A program made the translations under genes and the position numbers. Below are positions 2,904-24,275 of a DNA stretch of 25,360 nt, piece after piece. The DNA is from a virus (taxonomy: Duplodnaviria; Heunggongvirae; Uroviricota; Caudoviricetes). Below the pieces are notes generated by a model. That model made no database searches and had not been told where the DNA came from. It saw only the letters and a program-made list of their open reading frames with translations. The stretch's first letter is position 1, and each line of letters begins with the position of its first letter. Location: positions 1 through 25,360 of the IMG/VR virus record IMGVR_UViG_2778261536_000005. One strand, given 5' to 3'.

Positions 2904-5900
2904 TCAGAATACTCCCGTTAATCGGCCAACCTGCACCCTAAGAACATTACTGCCATCTTTGACGCTGATCGTCTGATTTGTCAGTTTCATGGCTCCCTCA
3001 CCAGCAGTCGAACCGTAGTTCTCAAACGTCCCCCCTTTATCAAGCTTCCAGCCAGCAGAACCAGCAACATAATTGTTCGACTGGATAAAATTACCAATCT
3101 TTGCGTTGCTGATAGTGCCGTCCTGGATGAAACTGGCCCGGATGAATGTCTGTCCATTCTGGATCACAAACGGCAAAGCCACGCTATTTCCGGCTGCCGT
3201 GGTGACGGCGAAGCGATCAGCCAGGAAGATAACCTGCGACTGCATGCCGGATGGCGTATTCTCCACGCCGATACCCATCCCCGCGGCGTAATACTGACCG
3301 TTGCTGGAAACGCCAACCTTGATGTTGTACATCGCGCTGAGGTCGCCATTAACGTTGGCTATCGCCTGAGCGTTAGTGGTGATGGCGGAGGTATGCCCGT
3401 TCACCGTCGCCGTTATGCCGTTTATCTGCGTGGCCGTAGCCTGCTGATAGTCGGAGAACGTCTGATTCAGGCTATTGATGGATGCCTTGTTGCCGTTGAC
3501 GTCCGTCTGCAGGCTAAGCAGCGAGCGCGCCGTTGCCTCCCTGTCGTTGACAATCACCTCATCAATACGGTCCAGATTCGCGCTGTTGCCGGCGACCGAT
3601 GCAGACAGGGTTTTACGCGCAGCCACCTGCGCCAGCCCGTTCTGGATAATGGCAATGGCTGAGTTCTTGACCCCACCCGTCATGCCGTCCATAGACACAC
3701 TGATGCTGTCGATTCGCTGGCCCAGCGCGGTATCAGCCGTCGCAACGGTCTGCTCAAGCTGACTGAGTGAAGACGAAACATTCCCGACCGTGCTGGAAAG
3801 CTCATTAACGCTGGTCTGAACCTTCCCGACGTCCTGGGCGTTTTTGGCGATATCCTTCGCATGCTGCTCAAGTTCATCATTGGCCTGTTTGATGTCGTCA
3901 GCCATGCCAGCAATTTTTTCATTGCTGTCCACAGCGTTCTCGATCAGGTCTTTGAACGTCTCAGACCCTTTGATGTCTTCAAGGATCACATCTGTGATGT
4001 CAGAAACATCGATACTGGCCTGCCCACGAACCCAGCCGGTATAACCTGACTCGTTACCGCTGCGGTCAACCAGCTGCGCGCGGTACCAGAAAATCTGCCC
4101 AGCCTTAAGGCCCATCTGCTGATATTTGCGCTGCGGGTAAGGCACATCGGCCAGCAGCATGGCATCGTCTTCAGTACCGGTCAGGCTGTACTGAATTTCC
4201 GTCTTCAGCGTGTCGTCGGTATTCGCCGGGAATCCCCAGTTCAGCTCGATACCGAACACCACGTTTTCAGAGGCGATAAAGCCAACAGGCTTCGGTGGAT
4301 TGCCCACTTTACCCGTCAGCGTTTTCTCTTCTGAATAGCCCCATCCGGATGAAATTTCTGCGGCATTGATTGCGCGCACCCGCACCAGGTAGCGCCCGGC
4401 ATAAATCCCCGGGACGTCGAATGACGTGGTGGAGGTGCGCGGCACGTTAACCCAGTTCCCGTCGTTGCGGCGCCATTGCGCTTCATAGGCGATAGCGTTC
4501 TGCGCCTGGTCCCAGCTCACGCGCATTGTTTCGACGCTGATATTTTGCTGAACCACGGAAAACGAGCTGATCACGATGTTCGCAGGCGGCGACTGGTTAC
4601 CAGGCGGGATCACGCTCACCGGCCGCTGGTCAATGATGGCTCCGGTATCGATGCGGGCATATTTATCCGGGTCGTGCCATGCGCCGGTGATTGAGAAAGT
4701 GCCATCACCGTTGTCGGAGACGCTGACAACACGATACTGCTGCGCGTAAAGCTCGTCAGATTCAACCACCCAAACAGCTTCGGCCTGTGGCGTCTCACTG
4801 TATGCCGTGGTGACTGTGACTGATTCCCCGTTCACGGCCTGAATGGTCCTGCTCTGCGACGCTCCGGAAGGTAGGTTGAGAATAAGGCGATCACCTGGTG
4901 CTGCATCAGCTACGCGGTCAAGTTTGATAACGCGACCGTTAACGGCGCTGATGCGGCCGCCCATAACCTTTCCGGAAAGCAGCTCGTCTGCCACGGCGAT
5001 GATGTAGCCCGGCTGCGGAATGTTTCCGTCCAGCCCGACATCAAACGAAACAACGCGATCCTTGTTATTGGTGAGAATACCCCAGCGCCCCTTTCGGTTC
5101 GCCTCTGACTGCCTGGTGCAGCCGATGGCTGTCATTTCCAGCTGATTGAAGCCGTACCGCGCCACCAGCGCCTGCTCAAATACCGGCTCCATCGCGTCGG
5201 CATAAGCGTTACCCGGGTCTGACCATGAAACCAGCGCTGTGGTGTAGCGGCTTTTCGTGGTGCTGCTCGAATAGGTGAAGCGACCGCCAACAACGTTAGC
5301 GCGCGTATAGCTGTAATCAACATCGCGCGGCATGTCAGCCAGGGCCACAATCTGATCCCCGCCCCAGTAGGTCATGCCACGGAAGATAGCGGCAAAATCA
5401 CGCAGGACTGTGTAGGCGTCGTTCCGGTCCTGAATGTACACGTTGCAGGTATAACGTGGTTCTGTACCGTTGCCCCCTTTGCCGTCTGGTACCATCTGAT
5501 CACAATACTGAGCAACCTGATAAAGCGTCCATTTATCAATATTCGCAGCGGTCAAACGGTGCCCAAGGCCGAACCGGTCAGAAACAACCAGGTCGTAAAA
5601 AATCCACGCAGGGTTATCCGTCCATGCCCACTTAAACGCACCGGTCCATGTACCGCTATAAGTGCGGGTTTCAGGGTCGTAGGTATCTGGAACGCGGATA
5701 ACGCGGCCGCGCGGTTCGCATGAAATTTGAGGAATAGAGCCGTTGAACTGGCTTGAGTCGAATTCGACGTAGAGCAGCGCGGTGTTCGGGTAGCGCAGTT
5801 TGGCGTCAATCACCTCGGTGAAGCTCTGCAGCATCATCGTGTCGCCGATCTTCGCGCTGTTGGCGTCAGAGGTAATCTTACGCAGACGTATTGTCCAGGT

Positions 5901-6455
5901 GCTGCCAGCCTGCGGTAAATCGATACGGTGGCTGCGCTCATAACCAGACGTCGTTTTTCCGGTCACGCTGGTATTGAGTACCGTCTGCCATGCGCCGCCG
6001 TCCGTCTGCAGGTCAATTGCATAATTGACCGAGTAACCCACCAGATCGCCGTCGTCCTCCTGTTTGAAAAGCGAGGGCCATTTAAGACGCAGGCGAACTG
6101 CTGAAAGCTGCGTATTGGTAAACGTGCGCGTCCAGGCTGTGGCACTTGATACCTCAGTTCCTACGCTGATCTCGTTTTCGGTACCGGGAATACCCTGAAT
6201 ATATTTTTGCGCCTGAGTTCCCGCGCGAAACTCCCACGTTACCCCGCTGAAGTTTTGGGAGCCGTCAGCATTCTCCAGCGCTGTTCCGTCCAGGTAGATA
6301 TCTTTGCCGGTGAGCTGCCCTGCAAACTCACCTTCCCCAAGCGCAACGAGGATTTTTGCCTTCGCTACAGATTGCAGATCATCAGGCTGTTCGGTAGGAG
6401 TTCGGGAACTTGAGCTGCCGCCCTTGCGGCCTTTTAACACTTTATCTGTAGCCAT
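2904..6455 (-). CDS. J: tail tip / host specificity protein J (central tail fibre)
   Basis: 1183 aa; N-terminal two thirds align with lambda J as recalled (PNTAL...YSGTWTGAFK...KWTLY...YCDQMVPDG); C-terminal third is a divergent Ala/Ser/Asn-rich helical region. Confidence 0.95.
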   Translation of the reverse strand: MATDKVLKGRKGGSSSSRTPTEQPDDLQSVAKAKILVALGEGEFAGQLTGKDIYLDGTALENADGSQNFSGVTWEFRAGTQAQKYIQGIPGTENEISVGTEVSSATAWTRTFTNTQLSAVRLRLKWPSLFKQEDDGDLVGYSVNYAIDLQTDGGAWQTVLNTSVTGKTTSGYERSHRIDLPQAGSTWTIRLRKITSDANSAKIGDTMMLQSFTEVIDAKLRYPNTALLYVEFDSSQFNGSIPQISCEPRGRVIRVPDTYDPETRTYSGTWTGAFKWAWTDNPAWIFYDLVVSDRFGLGHRLTAANIDKWTLYQVAQYCDQMVPDGKGGNGTEPRYTCNVYIQDRNDAYTVLRDFAAIFRGMTYWGGDQIVALADMPRDVDYSYTRANVVGGRFTYSSSTTKSRYTTALVSWSDPGNAYADAMEPVFEQALVARYGFNQLEMTAIGCTRQSEANRKGRWGILTNNKDRVVSFDVGLDGNIPQPGYIIAVADELLSGKVMGGRISAVNGRVIKLDRVADAAPGDRLILNLPSGASQSRTIQAVNGESVTVTTAYSETPQAEAVWVVESDELYAQQYRVVSVSDNGDGTFSITGAWHDPDKYARIDTGAIIDQRPVSVIPPGNQSPPANIVISSFSVVQQNISVETMRVSWDQAQNAIAYEAQWRRNDGNWVNVPRTSTTSFDVPGIYAGRYLVRVRAINAAEISSGWGYSEEKTLTGKVGNPPKPVGFIASENVVFGIELNWGFPANTDDTLKTEIQYSLTGTEDDAMLLADVPYPQRKYQQMGLKAGQIFWYRAQLVDRSGNESGYTGWVRGQASIDVSDITDVILEDIKGSETFKDLIENAVDSNEKIAGMADDIKQANDELEQHAKDIAKNAQDVGKVQTSVNELSSTVGNVSSSLSQLEQTVATADTALGQRIDSISVSMDGMTGGVKNSAIAIIQNGLAQVAARKTLSASVAGNSANLDRIDEVIVNDREATARSLLSLQTDVNGNKASINSLNQTFSDYQQATATQINGITATVNGHTSAITTNAQAIANVNGDLSAMYNIKVGVSSNGQYYAAGMGIGVENTPSGMQSQVIFLADRFAVTTAAGNSVALPFVIQNGQTFIRASFIQDGTISNAKIGNFIQSNNYVAGSAGWKLDKGGTFENYGSTAGEGAMKLTNQTISVKDGSNVLRVQVGRLTGVF

Positions 6456-6461
6456 ATTGCG

Positions 6462-6492
6462 CCCATAAAAAAGCCACCCGAAGGTGGCCAGA
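6462..6492 (-). terminator. terminator-like hairpin between I and J
   Basis: Plus strand CATAAAAAAGCCACC-CGAA-GGTGGC; on the minus strand the stem is followed by TTTTTTAT and then the J start. Coordinates approximate. Confidence 0.5.
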
Positions 6493-6507
6493 AAAAAGGT
6501 TAGTTAT

Positions 6508-7116
6508 CTACTGCTGATCTTCGACATAAATTCCGGCAGAAATAATCGCTCCGCCGATTCGACGCTTACCATAAAGCAGAGGCACCGGGTAGCCTTGCGC
6601 TGCAGTGTTGGTTACCCCGCCAAACGCATACGATGCACGGTTATCTGCGCTTTGTTTACTGGCTATGCCTGATGGCTGCGGTGAAAGCAGCTGAATAACC
6701 CCACCGAGGACCAACGAGGCACCAGTGGCAGCAGCAAACCCCGTCAATCCACCAGCAGCGAAAGCAGCGCCAATACCGCCGGGGCCAGTCAACACAGCAG
6801 CAGTAATAAGCACGGCCCCCAAGATCGTCTGCAAAAGACCAGCCTTTTTACTCCCTATTACTACAGGGACAATCCGGATCACTTCGCCGGTGACGGGAAA
6901 GCCGAGATCATCAACGCCAATATTCTTTTTATCTCTATAAACGGCATACGTCAGCCCTCGGGCTTTGCTTGTGTTTAAGAATTTCTCGAATCCATTGATG
7001 GTTTTCGCGAGTGCATTAATGGCTTCAGCAGTAGTGCGAACCAGACGGTGATGAACCCTTCCATATGTCTTAGCTAGCACGCCACTTAGCTCAATTCTTG
7101 TCATTACCTCTTGCAT
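6508..7116 (-). CDS. I: tail assembly protein I
   Basis: 202 aa ORF between K and J as in lambda; hydrophobic Gly/Ala-rich central segment. Confidence 0.75.
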   Translation of the reverse strand: MQEVMTRIELSGVLAKTYGRVHHRLVRTTAEAINALAKTINGFEKFLNTSKARGLTYAVYRDKKNIGVDDLGFPVTGEVIRIVPVVIGSKKAGLLQTILGAVLITAAVLTGPGGIGAAFAAGGLTGFAAATGASLVLGGVIQLLSPQPSGIASKQSADNRASYAFGGVTNTAAQGYPVPLLYGKRRIGGAIISAGIYVEDQQ

Positions 7117-7123
7117 GCTGCCC

Positions 7124-7152
7124 CCATAAAAAAACCACCCGTAGGTGGTTTG
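7124..7152 (-). terminator. terminator-like hairpin downstream of the small membrane protein gene, upstream of I
   Basis: Plus strand CATAAAAAAACCACC-CGTA-GGTGGTT, a near copy of the hairpin at 6462-6492 with a compensatory outer base pair; minus strand has a T-run after the stem. Confidence 0.55.
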
Positions 7153-7165
7153 TTAATTTACGCTC

Positions 7166-7390
7166 TCAAAGCCCAGCTTTTTTCCTTGCTTCTTCAAGGT
7201 AGTTTTCTTTCGACTGGTCTTTGTTATTTGCCTCGAAGTTTGGATCTACTATTTTTGATAATTTCTGGTCGATAGACTCAAGTAATTCAACCTGCCTGTT
7301 CGCTCTGACGCTGGCGCGGTTGATGAAAAACCAGAGAATTAACCCAATAAAAATACCGACGAAGATCCAACCAAACCCAACTGTATACAT
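7166..7390 (-). CDS. small single-pass membrane protein, moron between K and I
   Basis: 74 aa; N-terminal hydrophobic helix (VGFGWIFVGIFIGLILWFFI) then a charged C-terminal tail; strong AAGGAG RBS; AT-rich codon usage unlike neighbours; own downstream hairpin. Confidence 0.7.
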   Translation of the reverse strand: MYTVGFGWIFVGIFIGLILWFFINRASVRANRQVELLESIDQKLSKIVDPNFEANNKDQSKENYLEEARKKAGL

Positions 7391-7394
7391 ATCG

Positions 7395-7440
7395 TTCTCC
7401 TTGCCGTGTACTACACGATAGTATCAGTGACAGTTTGTTA
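7395..7440 (-). promoter_or_regulatory. candidate promoter/operator upstream of the membrane protein gene
   Basis: Perfect palindrome CGTGTA-C-TACACG just upstream of the RBS and a -10-like TACTAT on the minus strand; the -35 is weak. Confidence 0.3.
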
Positions 7441-8148
7441 AATAAAATTCTGATGTCTAAGAATCTTCATCGTCCTTTCCTGCCAGTAGCCACCATACGG
7501 CACGCGCTGGCTCAGATGTCCGTACAGGTGGTGCAGCAGCATATTGCCCTCCAGCAGAATTCCAGCGTGGTTCCACTTATCAGCCTGGACCTGCATGATC
7601 ACCATATCGCCGGGTTTCGGTGGTCCGTCGAATTCACGGAATCCGCACTCATACCAGCAATCCTGATAGAAGTTGTCCGGATAGTCGTTTTCCCACCAGG
7701 GATAATCAACCCGGTAATCGTGGAGCTCGATACCGTGGGTCTGCCGGAAATAGCTCATTACCAGCCCCCAGCAGTCGAAGTGTCCAAGCACAAACGGACG
7801 CTCCAGCAGTGGCAACTCACCACGCGGCTGAATGGTACGTAAATCCCCCTCGGGCCAGCTCACGATATGCCAGGGTAAAAGCGTTGCGTCGCATTGCGCT
7901 TTATCCAGTTCGCTCGGCTGCGTAGTGGCGTCAGGGTGACTGTGAACGATGGCTATCACCGTACCCCAGTCCTCAGCAGCTGCATAGTCTTCTGGAGACA
8001 GGTGAAAATGTTCTGTCGGCTCGGTAGCGAGGTTACTACATGGAAAATATTTCTCTACCCGGCTCTTTTGCGCCACCACGCCGCAACACTCACGAGGATA
8101 TTCAGCTGCAGCATGCGCCATAATCGCATCGATGGTTTTCTGACGCAT
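7438..8148 (-). CDS. K: tail assembly protein K (JAB/MPN plus NlpC/P60-like domains)
   Basis: 236 aa; HSHPD metal-binding motif and Cys/His residues typical of lambda K family; position between L and I. Confidence 0.9.
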   Translation of the reverse strand: MRQKTIDAIMAHAAAEYPRECCGVVAQKSRVEKYFPCSNLATEPTEHFHLSPEDYAAAEDWGTVIAIVHSHPDATTQPSELDKAQCDATLLPWHIVSWPEGDLRTIQPRGELPLLERPFVLGHFDCWGLVMSYFRQTHGIELHDYRVDYPWWENDYPDNFYQDCWYECGFREFDGPPKPGDMVIMQVQADKWNHAGILLEGNMLLHHLYGHLSQRVPYGGYWQERTMKILRHQNFI

Positions 8149-8149
8149 A

Positions 8150-8905
8150 TCAACTCCTGATCAGCGACGTACCAGGGAAGCCACCAAACGAGAGTTCGTT
8201 ATTTTCGCCGAACCGAAGTTTGCAGGCCGTCAGCGTTCCGTTGCATTCATCCAGTGACGGATCGCTTACCTGGTTGTTGTTTTTGTCGAAATAGCGCGTA
8301 CCGGCATAGTCGCAGCCGTCGCCGGTTCGGTACTTGTTCCGGATGCACCATGTGCACAGAGAATGAAGCTGGCGGGTAGGTATCATCAGCCCCTGCAGAT
8401 CCATAGGGCTGGATAGTGTGAACTCAACAACTTCATTGGTTTCACTGCTCTTTGCATCGATGTAGAAAACCTTCAGCTTCTCCTGGGTCGGATCGGCTGT
8501 CGGATTGCCTCCGGTGAAGTTTCTCGCATCGAGATACTTACCAAGGGTGTCATGTATCGTCACCTTCGCCTGCAGCATATCGTCGTAAGCCAGGCAAAGC
8601 GCGGTGATCGAACTGTCGAGGTTAGCAACCGAAAGTTTTGGCTGGGCACTACTTCCCGAGGTTGAAGCTTCGATCCCCTCAATCTGGCATGGCCACGCTT
8701 TATACTCCTCACCCTGCCACCAGATAGATTTTGCTGGCAGTTTATTTTCATCACCGCCAGCAGCGATAATTTCGGCTTCAGAGTGCGCAAGACTGTAGCT
8801 GTGAAATCGCAGCACATCACCTGTACCAAATGCCGTGCCATCCACTTCGAAAAGCCTGACCACATCGCCAGGTTCGAGCTTCTGAAAATCTGCGTTAAGA
8901 CTCAT
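8150..8905 (-). CDS. L: minor tail protein L
   Basis: 251 aa; conserved Cys cluster (CTWC...DGCDYAG...CKLRFG...FGGFPG) matching lambda L as recalled. Confidence 0.9.
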   Translation of the reverse strand: MSLNADFQKLEPGDVVRLFEVDGTAFGTGDVLRFHSYSLAHSEAEIIAAGGDENKLPAKSIWWQGEEYKAWPCQIEGIEASTSGSSAQPKLSVANLDSSITALCLAYDDMLQAKVTIHDTLGKYLDARNFTGGNPTADPTQEKLKVFYIDAKSSETNEVVEFTLSSPMDLQGLMIPTRQLHSLCTWCIRNKYRTGDGCDYAGTRYFDKNNNQVSDPSLDECNGTLTACKLRFGENNELSFGGFPGTSLIRS

Positions 8906-9243
8906 GGTTTGTAGGCCTGTTCAAAAGTTGCAGAAAGATTAAATAACCCGGCACCAAGTGGCGTTGGTGTGTAGGTGTCGCAGCGGTAAAGCCCGAGAGG
9001 CTCAAGCGGCGGGCGCCACTGAAACGCCGTCACGCCCGCATGGCGATCGAGAAAGTCTTTAATCGCCCCGATATACGTTTCGGTACCGGTAAACTGGAGA
9101 GTCCATTTCTGCGAGCGGGGATTAATCCCGTCGCCGGAAACCTGCTGATATCCGTCACCGAACTGCGCGGTGCGCCGTCGGAATGTCACTTCCTGCTCCG
9201 CGTTCGGGCGCGGACACCAGCTGAATGTTTCTATAGCCATCAC
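8902..9243 (-). CDS. M: minor tail protein M
   Basis: 113 aa; FGDGYQQ motif as in lambda M; overlaps L and H by 4 nt each. Confidence 0.85.
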   Translation of the reverse strand: MMAIETFSWCPRPNAEQEVTFRRRTAQFGDGYQQVSGDGINPRSQKWTLQFTGTETYIGAIKDFLDRHAGVTAFQWRPPLEPLGLYRCDTYTPTPLGAGLFNLSATFEQAYKP

Positions 9244-11660
9244 CGCCCTCCTTTTGCCAGATTCCAGACCGCGCCACCGGGTGAAAGGTCACGGCCTATC
9301 AACTCGCGGTATCGCCGATCAACAAAACTACCTACCTCCCGCCCGAATTGCTCATATCCACCGCTAGCCTGAGTCTGGGTATTCCCATTGCCATCAATCT
9401 GAATACTGACCTGAGGAGCACTACTACCACCCGGTGTTAAGCCTGAGATTCCCATAGCACGCACGCCAAGCGATCCGTCAGCGGCGCGGGTCAGTGGCAT
9501 AATAGCCTCCGGCCCAGCCTCCCCCATCAATCCGGCCCCTTTGGCAAAGGCAAACAGTGTTGGAGAGCTGACGACAGAGTTACTGTACTGACTGAGATCG
9601 GCAGAAGAGTAAACGCCGCCTTTGGCGTTGAATTGCAGGCTCGCCCCGTAGGACTGAATCGCAGTACCGCTGCTGGCGGAAGACGATGCGGCACCACCGA
9701 ACAATGAGCCTATCGAGCTGGCTGCATTGGCGATCATCATGTTAACCATCACCTGTTCGATGATTTTCAGAACACTGACACCCCAGTCTTTCCAGCTCGC
9801 TTTATTGCCGTTGAGCATGTCGACGATATTGCTGCTGATACCGGAAAGCGCGCTTTTCATAGCGTCCGCCGCCAGCGTCGCATAGTTAGTTGAATCATCT
9901 ACCCAGTCAGCGAGACCGTCTCTGGCGCCAGTCACCCAGTCAGACTGCAGCGCATCAATTTGACTGTAATAATCCTCCTGGATGCCCAGCCTCTCAGCTT
10001 GCGCATCCTTTAATGCCTGGGTTTCGCGGTCATAAACTGTCTGGCTGATATCTCCTGACTGATACTGCTTTTGCAGATCGCGCTGCTGATCGAGATAACT
10101 GCGCTCTATACTCAGCCTTTCCCTCAGCCTTTCACGCTGCTTGTCACCGAGTCCGGCCCCCTGAATATCCACGCCCAAATCTGCACGTGCATTCTCGTTC
10201 TGCTCCTGCAGATTTGCCACGAACGCCGCTACCTTCGCGTTTTCTTCATTAGCTTTTTTGACGGCATTAAGGCGATCAACTTCCTGAGCCAGAGACGCAA
10301 GTCGTTTCTTCTGGGTTTCGTTAAGCCCCTGCAACTTGCCGTCAGCTATATCGAACTGCAGTTTTTGCTGCTCGGTCACCACAGCAGTTTTTTTGCCGGT
10401 GGTATCGATCAGCTCAATCTGACGCATGTAACTGCGCTCAGCGCTTTTAAACGCTGAATCCAGTTTCTGACCAGAGGTATTTTTTTGCGGCTTACCGTTT
10501 GTTTCCCCGGCGCCAAGGGTATAGTTTGTTTTGACTGGCTCGGGCAGTTTTATTTCCGGTAGAGTAGATTGGGAGTTTCTCAAAAAGGCCAGTCGCCTCT
10601 GGAGCTCAGCCCTTTCGGCCTCCTTACCGGATACGTCCATACCTATTCTGTTGAAACTCGCCAGTATGCCTTTATCATCGAGATCTGCATTCAGGTTCTT
10701 GATGCGCCGTTCAATTTCTGGAATGGAGGCATTCAGGCCGACCGAACTCCCACCTTTGTACTGGTCTATCAGCTTTCCGGCCTCGGCTCCTACCCTTACC
10801 AGCCAGGTGGCAAGGTCCACTACCCCACCAACCAGATCAGTCAGACCCTGAATAACAGCCGGGTCTTTAAATACATCCCCCATATCTCCAATAGACTTCT
10901 GGAGCCCACTCAAATCTACGCTGGCGAGCCCTGCAGCAAGTTCAATTTTGACGCCGTTGACCTGCGTCTCCATATCCTCAAACAGGGCGTTGACTCTGAC
11001 CAGCTTTTCAATATCTGCGTCATCGGGCGCCACACCAAACTTCTTCGCGGCATCCATATACTGACGCAGCTTTTCACTGCCATTGTCCAGGAGCGGCAGC
11101 ATCTTTGACAGGTCATTACCCAGACTCTCCAGGATGGTAGTCTTCTCGGCGTTGGACTTAACTTTCTCCAGTGCGTCGCTGATAGCCAGGAGTTGCTTGT
11201 CGGGAGATTCTCCGGCCAGTTTCTTAGCCGACAAACCCAGAGCGTCCAGCGCACCGACCGCCTCACCAGATTTATTAAGAACGGCATCACCGATTTTGTC
11301 TCCGACATCTTTAAAGATATCGGCCATCTGATCGCCGGAAACACCTGCTTTTTCTGCAGCATATTGCCAGGCTAACAGGGACTGCGTGGACATGTTAAGT
11401 GACTTTGCCCAGCGGTCTGATTCGGTAATCTGACGTGAAGTGGTTTTGAGCAGGTTATACCCCGCCACTCCGGCTCCGATGGCTGCAGCCCCGACTGCTG
11501 TTGCGAATCCGGTCATGGCAGCTGCAGCGGCAGCGGCATCCTCCTTTACCTGCTTACGCCATTTTTGTGAAGCTCGCTCAGCCTGCGAGAGGCCTGAGAC
11601 AAAACCGCCCACTTTGGCAATCAGGTCGATCGTCAGCGTGCCCAGTGATTTGGAAGCCAT
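9240..11660 (-). CDS. H: tail tape measure protein H
   Basis: 806 aa, Ala/Gly-rich N-terminus and long helical central region; sits between G-T and M. Confidence 0.9.
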   Translation of the reverse strand: MASKSLGTLTIDLIAKVGGFVSGLSQAERASQKWRKQVKEDAAAAAAAMTGFATAVGAAAIGAGVAGYNLLKTTSRQITESDRWAKSLNMSTQSLLAWQYAAEKAGVSGDQMADIFKDVGDKIGDAVLNKSGEAVGALDALGLSAKKLAGESPDKQLLAISDALEKVKSNAEKTTILESLGNDLSKMLPLLDNGSEKLRQYMDAAKKFGVAPDDADIEKLVRVNALFEDMETQVNGVKIELAAGLASVDLSGLQKSIGDMGDVFKDPAVIQGLTDLVGGVVDLATWLVRVGAEAGKLIDQYKGGSSVGLNASIPEIERRIKNLNADLDDKGILASFNRIGMDVSGKEAERAELQRRLAFLRNSQSTLPEIKLPEPVKTNYTLGAGETNGKPQKNTSGQKLDSAFKSAERSYMRQIELIDTTGKKTAVVTEQQKLQFDIADGKLQGLNETQKKRLASLAQEVDRLNAVKKANEENAKVAAFVANLQEQNENARADLGVDIQGAGLGDKQRERLRERLSIERSYLDQQRDLQKQYQSGDISQTVYDRETQALKDAQAERLGIQEDYYSQIDALQSDWVTGARDGLADWVDDSTNYATLAADAMKSALSGISSNIVDMLNGNKASWKDWGVSVLKIIEQVMVNMMIANAASSIGSLFGGAASSSASSGTAIQSYGASLQFNAKGGVYSSADLSQYSNSVVSSPTLFAFAKGAGLMGEAGPEAIMPLTRAADGSLGVRAMGISGLTPGGSSAPQVSIQIDGNGNTQTQASGGYEQFGREVGSFVDRRYRELIGRDLSPGGAVWNLAKGGR

Positions 11661-13300: not shown

Positions 13301-13845
13301 GCAGTGGTTCCTTTCTTCGTGGCCAGCCTGATAGCGCGATCAATAGCCTTTCCCATTTCCGTAGAAAAAACATTAATCACGTCATTATCTACGCCGTTCA
13401 TTGCAGGTCGGAGGATAGGCCGCGCTGATGTGTGCTCAGTACCAAACTCAAGAAAACGCCAGTACCAGGTATCTCCTCCTGGATTGCCTTTATCTCCTGA
13501 GGTTTTGTATGTTTTACCCGCTCTGCCTTTTCTGACGTTTGCCTTTGTATTTGCATACTGCCTGGCACCGCCCATTACCCCGACACGGAATGCCAGATCA
13601 CCTGTCCTGCGGAATTGCTTGCTGCTGAAGCTGGCGACGATATTTTTGTGGATTGCTTCTTTAGTCAGAGGATCATCAACTCGTGACGCGTTGCTTCTGG
13701 CCCGATCCCTTATAATGTTTGCCGCCTTACGCAATGCAAACCGACCGGCTTTATTACGGGTGACTTCTGATACGGCCTCCATTTTCCCAAGAAGTGATTC
13801 AAGCCCGGTAAGGCTTACCTCAACACTATCAGCCATCATTAACAC
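13297..13845 (-). CDS. HK97 gp10-family neck / tail-component protein
   Basis: 182 aa; C-terminal WRFLEFGT...ARPILRPA resembles the hallmark motif of the HK97 gp10 family. True start may be a few codons downstream. Confidence 0.65.
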   Translation of the reverse strand: MLMMADSVEVSLTGLESLLGKMEAVSEVTRNKAGRFALRKAANIIRDRARSNASRVDDPLTKEAIHKNIVASFSSKQFRRTGDLAFRVGVMGGARQYANTKANVRKGRAGKTYKTSGDKGNPGGDTWYWRFLEFGTEHTSARPILRPAMNGVDNDVINVFSTEMGKAIDRAIRLATKKGTTA

Positions 13846-21301: not shown

Positions 21302-21790
21302 TTAATAGCCATCAGAAGTAATCGCTACAGATTTCAATCCCTCAATGTCATCCTTGGACAGGGCGAACCATTCACCGTGCTTTCTCTTTGCGGCAAATTT
21401 GCGATGAAGCATGTTTTCAGTTTCTCTTCCACCAGGGATCAGGCACTCAAGCTTCAAGCAGTCTGGTCCAGAGTTGCCAAGCGATTTGATGCGTTGTGGA
21501 ATGTTGGATGAATACCCAATTTTGGTTAGCCCAGTTTTCTTCGATGACAAAACGTATACCTGAGGAGGTTCTTTTCTCTGGTCTTCCATTACACGTCTCA
21601 TTGTTGCCCTAAGTCCGCCGTGCATCAGCATTTCAACAAAGAACGCTGACCGAACACCTGACGACTTAAGCATGCCAGAAAATTCACTTGCCAATTCCAT
21701 TAACTCTGCGATGTTTTCAGGAACTTTTTGGCAGTTATCTTCCTTGTATAAGGAAATCATTCTTTGAAGCTTTTCTTCTAATTGGTTCAT
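21302..21790 (-). CDS. GIY-YIG-like / T5orf172-domain protein (putative nuclease), moron
   Basis: C-terminal VYVLSS..TGLTKIGYSSN...RIKSL...HRKF...GEWF fits a GIY-YIG/T5orf172 pattern; about 80 aa helical N-terminal region; AT-rich. Track ORF begins at a GTG (21826); the ATG at 21790 is preferred. Confidence 0.65.
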   Translation of the reverse strand: MNQLEEKLQRMISLYKEDNCQKVPENIAELMELASEFSGMLKSSGVRSAFFVEMLMHGGLRATMRRVMEDQRKEPPQVYVLSSKKTGLTKIGYSSNIPQRIKSLGNSGPDCLKLECLIPGGRETENMLHRKFAAKRKHGEWFALSKDDIEGLKSVAITSDGY

Positions 21791-21929
21791 AGCGTCTTTA
21801 CCTTTTAGAAAGTGAGCCTGTCTCACAGAAAAGCCGCCCGAGAGAGGTCGCCACCTATAACGGCATTTCTCAGGCTCGCTTACTGAAAGGCTCTCGTTAA
21901 TATGCGCGTGAGATGCGCGTTTACTGCGG

Positions 21930-23651: not shown

Positions 23652-24275
23652 CTAACGTGTGACCGCATTCAAGATATTGTCTGCGATTGACTCTTCCTTG
23701 TGGCATTGCACCACCAGAGCGTCATACAGCGGCTTAACAGTGCGTGACCAGGTGGGTTGAGTAAGGTTTGGGATTAGCATCGTTACAGCGCGATATGCGG
23801 CGCTTGCTGGCATCCTTGAATAGCCGACACCTTTGCATCTTCCGCACTCTTTCTCAACAACTCTCCCCCACTGCTCTGTTTTTGCTATATCAACCGCGCG
23901 GCCTGTACCATGGCAATCTCTGCATCTTGCCCCCGGCGTCGCGGCACTACGGCAATAATCCGCATAAGCGAATGTTGCGAGCACTTGCAGTACCTTTGCC
24001 TTAGTATTTCCTTCAAGCTTTGCCACACCACGGTATTTCCCCGATACCTTGTGTGCAAATTGCATCAGATAGTTGATAGCCTTTTGTTTGTCGTTCTGGC
24101 TGAGTTCGTGCTTACCGCAGAATGCAGCCATACCGAATCCGGCTTGTGATTGCGCCATCCCCATAGCAGCCATCACATCAGTACCGGAAAGAGAGTCAGA
24201 AGCCGTGGCCCGTGGTGAGTCGCTCATCATCGGGCTTTTTGGCGAATGAAATTTAGCTACGCTTTCGAGTCTCAT
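23652..24275 (-). CDS. Q: late antiterminator Q (lambda type)
   Basis: 207 aa with zinc-binding Cys cluster (CRDCHGTG...CGRCKG); matches lambda Q as recalled; located upstream of pR' and S. Confidence 0.9.

Follow-up and report, generated by a model that had tools for sequence, protein, structure and literature searches.

What is a short AT-rich reading frame doing between two genes of a phage tail operon, and what might its product do for the phage or for the host? The question is raised by a stretch of DNA of 25,360 nucleotides (positions 1 to 25,360 of IMG/VR virus record IMGVR_UViG_2778261536_000005; referred to here as the window), in which a 74-codon open reading frame (ORF) separates relatives of the lambda tail genes K and I. 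It was originally predicted to be a moron encoding a small membrane protein, with superinfection exclusion, abortive infection and membrane toxicity offered as possible functions. We describe here the organization of this locus, its relatives in other phages, and the evidence bearing on what its product does.

Organization of the locus

The tail genes of the window are on the minus strand (which the original prediction left unstated) in the order tape measure, M, L, K, 74-codon ORF, I and J (Table 1). The ORF is present between the K-like and I-like genes as predicted, and its Shine-Dalgarno sequence, also predicted, is kept in most of the homologous modules. Downstream is an intrinsic terminator with a GC-rich stem of 8 bp, whose 3' end is ~9 nt short of the I start codon at 7116; a hairpin and T-run had been proposed here and are found, just outside the interval first assigned to the feature. 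The same terminator is annotated in mEp235, HK446, and HK97, and is described as rho-independent in mEp235 and HK446.

Table 1. Coordinates of the 74-codon gene, its associated signals, and other features of the window.
Feature	Coordinates	Strand	Remarks
74-aa ORF	7166-7390	minus	ATG start, 74 codons plus stop; YebO-family single-pass membrane protein (predicted)
Shine-Dalgarno AAGGAG	7397-7402	minus	6 nt 5' of the ATG
Palindrome CGTGTA-C-TACACG	7405-7417		Within the predicted 5' leader
Candidate extended -10 TGaTACTAT	7418-7426	minus	27 nt 5' of the ATG; transcription would start near 7411
Intrinsic terminator	7125-7151	minus	AAACCACC-TACG-GGTGGTTT, then T-run; hairpin plus T-run at 7151-7132
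Tape measure	9240-11660	minus	Tail gene
M	8902-9243	minus	Tail gene
L	8150-8905	minus	Tail gene
K-like tail tip assembly protein	7438-8148	minus	Upstream flank; Prok-JAB and NlpC/P60
K end, last 7 codons (RHQNFI plus stop)	7438-7459	minus	Inside the exchangeable module
I-like tail assembly protein	6508-7116	minus	Downstream flank; Lambda_tail_I
J	2904-6455	minus	Tail gene, last in the order given
Q-like antiterminator	23652-24275		Encoded in the window

A second terminator-like hairpin (GGCCACC-TTCG-GGTGGCT followed by a T-run, 6472-6489, minus strand) is present in the 52 nt that separate I from J. This junction contains further morons in HK97 and HK022 (gp22 and gp23/srb), and in the window it is an empty slot with a terminator.

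Other parts of the window also contain small genes. Three are located 3' of J on the minus strand (1621-2902), corresponding to phrog_557 ('outer membrane protein', 2600-2902), phrog_425 ('membrane associated protein', 1962-2600), and the superinfection-exclusion protein Cor (1621-1854), and the segment from 1638 to 2184 has one of the lowest GC contents in the window. A 174-aa ORF (21302-21826, minus strand; phrog_4284), in another of the lowest-GC stretches, is located after the Rz spanin gene and before the HNH/terminase genes with non-coding gaps on both sides, and may be another moron. The genes for Q, holin, endolysin, Rz, HNH, and terminase form an uninterrupted block between 19600 and 24300. 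This Q-terminase contiguity spans the cos junction, and the window therefore derives from a prophage or from a record that is circularly permuted, and not from a linear genome as packaged.

The gene corresponds to HK022 gene 20

A megablast search with positions 6400-8200 matched 54 phage records, of which 30 had a query coverage of 80% or more. mEp235 (99.1%) and mEpX1 (97.9%) come nearest, followed by HK75, HK106, mEp234, HK446, and HK022 at ~97%. The predicted protein is 100% identical to HK022 gp20 (AAF30371.1), which has the GenBank label "moron gene product", and identical copies are present in HK75, mEp235, mEp234, mEpX1, mEp506, HK106, HK446, HK542, HK544, HK633, and ECP1. This HK022 gp20 group has the same K/I slot, ribosome binding site, and terminator as the window, and differs from it by no more than a handful of bases, in the leader and the palindrome. 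Judged by these sequence matches, the element is the one already catalogued as the 'gene 20' moron of HK022, and we refer to its product as gp20. Juhala and colleagues reportedly recognized the element as a moron in their work on the HK022 sequence in 2000. The exact sequence is found on 640 contigs of a large collection, and in only seven of 5426 complete E. coli genomes.

Homology searching, which the original prediction had named as a check, thus led to HK022 gp20, and it also led to the YebO family and to HK97 gp15. The protein matches Pfam YebO (PF13974) with 47.7 bits against a gathering cut-off of 27 (E = 1.8e-12) and phrog_5031 with E = 7e-41, it is named 'YebO family protein' by the NCBI pipeline PGAP, and it contains the family's juxtamembrane motif NRAS.R.N.Q.ELLE following a single N-terminal transmembrane (TM) helix. 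The 74-aa protein has no match in PADLOC and gives only sub-threshold noise in NCBIfam, and an Rfam gathering search of the whole window yielded no family above threshold.

A moron at an exchangeable junction

According to the definition of Juhala et al. (2000), as relayed in PMC3594210, a moron is extra DNA between genes, of deviant base composition, with its own promoter and terminator and with expression from the prophage. Extra DNA is evident at this junction: K and I overlap in lambda, in keeping with the claim that they are adjacent or overlapping there, and in two of the other loci (L015 and L018) they overlap by 8 nt and the slot is empty. The composition is deviant, with a GC content of 0.42 for the whole insert and 0.40 for the ORF against 0.53, 0.51, and 0.55 for K, I, and J, such that the insert ranks within the lowest 2% of the window's 321-bp windows; the predicted AT-richness relative to the flanking tail genes is thus real. 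The insert also has a terminator of its own, the hairpin and T-run noted above.

The K/I slot is occupied by other cargo in some phages. HK140 has a 113-aa lipoprotein gene at this position and LMessi has two lipoprotein genes, each cargo with its own terminator, and in Serratia and Pantoea a lipoprotein gene follows the K/I YebO gene to form a two-gene moron; these other K/I cargo genes are all lipoproteins, i.e. small envelope proteins. The homology of HK140 and LMessi to the window ends at ~7459, 22 nt short of the stop codon of K, and the C-termini of their K proteins diverge starting exactly at that break, so that the last seven codons of K are supplied by the module. The HK140/LMessi cargo corresponds to phrog_914 and phrog_2320, with lipoboxes AGC, MGC, and VGC. 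The junction is a cargo hot spot, with such genes at loci L011 (1061-1402), L012 (1066-1401 and 1408-1755), L007 (4278-4610), and L016 (3722-4147).

HK97 contains the same gene with a single C-to-T change (CAG to TAG) generating an amber codon at position 33, and the gene is unannotated in that genome. HK97 is a fully viable phage, so gene 20 is dispensable for virion production. Its location in HK97 is L001 4652-4876 (AF069529.1, about 13560-13784), and the unannotated gene accounts for the jump in the HK97 numbering from gp19 to gp21.

The interpretation of the gene as a moron is supported by these observations, and the original prediction was correct in this regard: the HK022 label, the alternative cargo, the AT-rich insert, and the terminator all agree with it. 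We considered a tail structural or assembly gene and rejected it on account of the HK97 amber at codon 33, the empty slots in lambda, L015, and L018, and the different cargo in HK140 and LMessi. The original prediction had allowed that homologs might prove to be structural and conserved at this position in related phages; the position is indeed conserved across genera, but the HK97 nonsense codon does not fit a structural role.

Predicted topology and conservation of gp20

The predicted single N-terminal TM helix and charged C-terminal tail are both apparent in gp20. Residues 4-23 are uncharged and hydrophobic, with Kyte-Doolittle values up to 2.36, and the 51 residues that follow (24-74) include 10 K/R and 9 D/E. 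The helix is followed by the NRASVRANRQVELLESID motif, and the protein ends with a YLEEARKKAGL C-terminus. R25, R29, and R32 come after the TM helix, from which, by the positive-inside rule, we infer an N-out/C-in topology, and helix 4-23 together with the same rule predicts an inner-membrane location. An AlphaFold (AF2) model has a helix at residues 3-48, a break at DPN, and a second helix at 52-72, with a mean pLDDT of 70.

Among 29 homologs with 50-97% identity there are 17 invariant columns, comprising the start methionine, W20, R25-N31, Q33, L36-I40, L44, and K70, and the EEARKKAGL C-terminus is nearly invariant. The ORF DNA is identical in all of the coliphages, so dN/dS is not computable among them, and in cross-genus comparisons dN is 0.18-0.47 with dS saturated, indicating purifying selection on the protein.

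Distribution of the gene within tail operons

We gathered 45 loci of the gp20 subfamily, some of them redundant, from genomes, viral contigs, and exact look-ups. All 45 are inside lambda-like tail operons and oriented in the same direction as the tail genes, with 32 at the K/I junction, nine at H/M, and four at T/H, the last being also the location of HK97 gp15. The H/M copies are at loci L015, L018, L022, L044-L046, and L052-L054, and the T/H copies at L005, L021, L050, and L051. The K/I position is conserved in Escherichia, Enterobacter, Serratia, and Pantoea. Most of the relatives also have a terminator 3' of the gene. In Serratia sp. Ag1 (L023 and L057, 4001-4225) the NRASVRANRQIELLESID core is kept together with a wholly different C-terminus and a start codon that is not clear, reflecting either a divergent subfamily or a decaying copy.

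Eight coliphages (HK97, HK75, HK446, mEp234, HK544, HK106, HK633, and mEpX1) contain both gp15 at T/H and a gp20-type gene at K/I, whereas HK022, mEp235, HK542, mEp506, ECP1, and the window have gp20 alone. This co-carriage suggests that the two have non-redundant specificities. Identical gp20 proteins occur together with both HK97-type and HK022-type tape-measure proteins, with no correlation with tape-measure type among the coliphages.

Relationship of gp20 to HK97 gp15 and to E. coli YebO

A BLASTP comparison aligns gp20 with HK97 gp15 at 43% identity over 44 aa (E = 5e-9), and gp15 also belongs to PF13974 and phrog_5031. Like gp20, gp15 is encoded by a moron in the tail operon with its own terminator, and its one TM helix is N-terminal and precedes R.S.RAN.QVE.L. 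It differs in being 62 aa rather than 74 aa, in being encoded at T/H adjoining the tape-measure gene rather than at K/I, in having a middle segment (KQDAQIDLLIQVAH) unlike that of gp20, and in lacking YLEEARKKAGL. The similarity extends to about residue 49 and the last ~25 residues differ; it is the C-terminal segment that sets gp15 apart from the inactive E. coli YebO (see below). A 77-aa Klebsiella phage protein is gp15-like in its middle and gp20-like at its C-terminus, ending YLEEARKKAGLI.

Experiments have established gp15 as a protein of the inner membrane that mediates superinfection exclusion (Cumby et al. 2012; PMC3594210). Escape from gp15 has been traced to the region of the tail tube and the tape measure (PMC3594210; PMC10883804), and the block has been attributed to a complex of the tape-measure protein with PtsG in a 2026 review (PMC12939059). 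Another review states that gp15 is without homologs in other phages (PMC6379469); by sequence, the gp20-type relatives contradict this statement.

The E. coli chromosome encodes a protein of the same Pfam family, YebO (b1825, 95 aa), which shares the IGLILWFFINRAS TM end and juxtamembrane motif with gp20 at 73% identity over 30 aa, but extends further at the N-terminus, is unrelated to gp20 in its C-terminal half, and is encoded at the chromosomal mgrB-yebO locus. DNA identity in the shared block is only 51/78, and gp20 is thus not a recent capture of yebO. YebO reportedly has no effect on HK97 (PMC3594210), and since it is inactive in spite of the shared core, membership of the YebO family is no guarantee of exclusion activity.

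Several other small prophage-expressed envelope proteins, including Cor, P22 SieA, TP-J34 Ltp, and Tuc2009 Sie2009, block infection at or before DNA entry and have no sequence relation to gp20. Cor acts on the FhuA receptor, Ltp is a lipoprotein, and SieA is polytopic. Escape from Ltp, as from gp15, involves the tape-measure or tail region (PMC10883804).

A candidate promoter and a probably fortuitous palindrome

A strict scan for sigma-70 -35/-10 promoters gave no match upstream of the 74-codon ORF, and the candidate listed in Table 1 is of the extended -10 type. When 29 non-identical modules were scanned for TGn plus a hexamer with at least four of six matches, requiring A at position 2 and T at position 6, the motif was found in 24, mostly 25-31 nt 5' of the start codon, where ~0.12 per 55-nt region is expected by chance. 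The matches include modules with highly diverged upstream sequences and are found at all three slots (T/H, H/M, and K/I). E. coli yebO has the same architecture, with TGgTAGAAT located 25 nt 5' of its own ATG. We infer that the cassette carries a yebO-type extended -10 promoter with it as it moves, the motif's recurrence being supportive of this and not proof of it.

A palindrome upstream of the gene had been noted as one of the marks of a moron; it is present but provides no signal. Perfect palindromes with 6-bp arms and a 1-nt spacer occur six times in the window against 6.2 expected, the region folds no better than shuffled sequences (z = +0.75, with no stable fold), and the palindrome is among the few variable positions in otherwise near-identical phages. 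We therefore rejected it as an operator or RNA element, and it is probably fortuitous.

Antitermination by Q is established in lambdoid late operons, where terminators are read through. The Q-like protein encoded in the window would by analogy let late transcription pass the moron terminator into I and J. The searchable literature yielded no account of what HK022 gp20 does or how it is expressed, and no transcript data for HK022 gene 20.

Proposed role of gp20 and its alternatives

Among the functions offered originally, exclusion is the best supported, because gp20 is homologous to HK97 gp15. The gene is part of a self-contained cassette of ~340 bp (about 7125-7459, minus strand) inserted at the K/I junction of an HK022/mEp235-like prophage tail operon, and this cassette would be transcribed from its own extended -10 promoter in the repressed prophage, and by Q-antiterminated late transcription as well. 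gp20 would be inserted in the inner membrane with its N-terminus out and its conserved ~50-aa helical tail in the cytoplasm, and would block genome entry of incoming phages with non-contractile tails at an inner-membrane step following adsorption. The likely route would be interference with the tape-measure-protein channel or with its inner-membrane host partner; only about three residues would face the periplasm, so direct contact with the incoming tail would be limited. Because two paralogs are present in eight coliphages, and because the C-termini differ, the target range of gp20 is probably unlike that of gp15.

The presence in the window of Cor, another exclusion moron, and the envelope nature of the other K/I cargo are in favor of this reading. 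The loss of the gene from HK97 without any known consequence, the C-terminal difference from gp15, the lack of a PADLOC match, and the lack of a strict sigma-70 promoter count against it. We regard gp20 as best explained as a protein made by the prophage that keeps phage DNA from entering in the manner of gp15, with roughly even confidence, limited by the insufficiency of the YebO core, the association with two types of tape-measure protein, and the HK97 loss.

The closeness to YebO also suggests a different role, in which gp20 is a lysogenic-conversion factor that mimics or perturbs YebO and alters an envelope or stress property of the host rather than blocking phages. The near identity to YebO of the TM end and juxtamembrane segment, the promoter architecture shared with yebO, and the lack of any YebO effect on HK97 (PMC3594210) are all consistent with this, but the 45 homologs are without exception in siphovirus tail operons and at no other loci, the sole characterized phage member of the family is an exclusion protein, and the C-terminal tail of gp20 is unrelated to that of YebO. 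We consider an action on host physiology unlikely, if worth keeping in mind.

It is decidedly less probable that gp20 is an accessory of the lytic cycle, made mainly from the late transcript and acting, for example, to stop injection by progeny or co-infecting phages, or to modulate tail-tip or DNA-exit events at the membrane. Such a role would account for the orientation shared with the tail genes inside a Q-dependent late operon and for the retention of the same junction in four genera, but HK97 is viable with its amber at codon 33, lambda, L015, and L018 have no gene in the slot, and a terminator and a promoter-like element belong to the gene itself.

With a short and very hydrophobic helix at its N-terminus and a charged amphipathic one after it, gp20 has the general look of a small membrane toxin, which could depolarize the membrane when over-produced or triggered, either as a toxin proper or as an abortive-infection effector. 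We think this very improbable, as there is no Rfam antisense or antitoxin RNA, no partner gene, and no PADLOC match, a strong ribosome binding site together with a probable constitutive promoter would be lethal in the case of a toxin, and the homolog gp15 blocks injection and does not kill the cell (PMC3594210).

Lastly, a decaying non-functional remnant or chance ORF, to which the HK97 nonsense allele, the altered ribosome binding site and two substitutions at L037, and the scarcity of the module in complete E. coli genomes might point, is effectively refuted by the conservation pattern, with a full-length protein maintained across genera at 50-97% identity, 17 invariant columns, saturated synonymous sites, and occurrence on 640 contigs.

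Implications

If gp20 is an exclusion protein, a broader proposal may be made, which we put forward tentatively and with less than even confidence. The gp20-type YebO proteins would constitute a second family of injection-blocking exclusion proteins, with a specificity other than that of gp15, distributed among three tail-operon junctions as a promoter-gene-terminator cassette derived from host yebO. Prophages with both gp15 and gp20 would have layered exclusion, and the invariant YLEEARKKAGL cytoplasmic tail would bind a host factor of the inner membrane on which certain siphophages depend to get their DNA into the cell. gp20 is a paralog of gp15, itself a textbook example of an exclusion protein. 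The family moves among three tail-operon junctions in a small module that retains a conserved extended -10, and it offers a clean model for the recruitment of host small-membrane-protein genes as prophage defenses.
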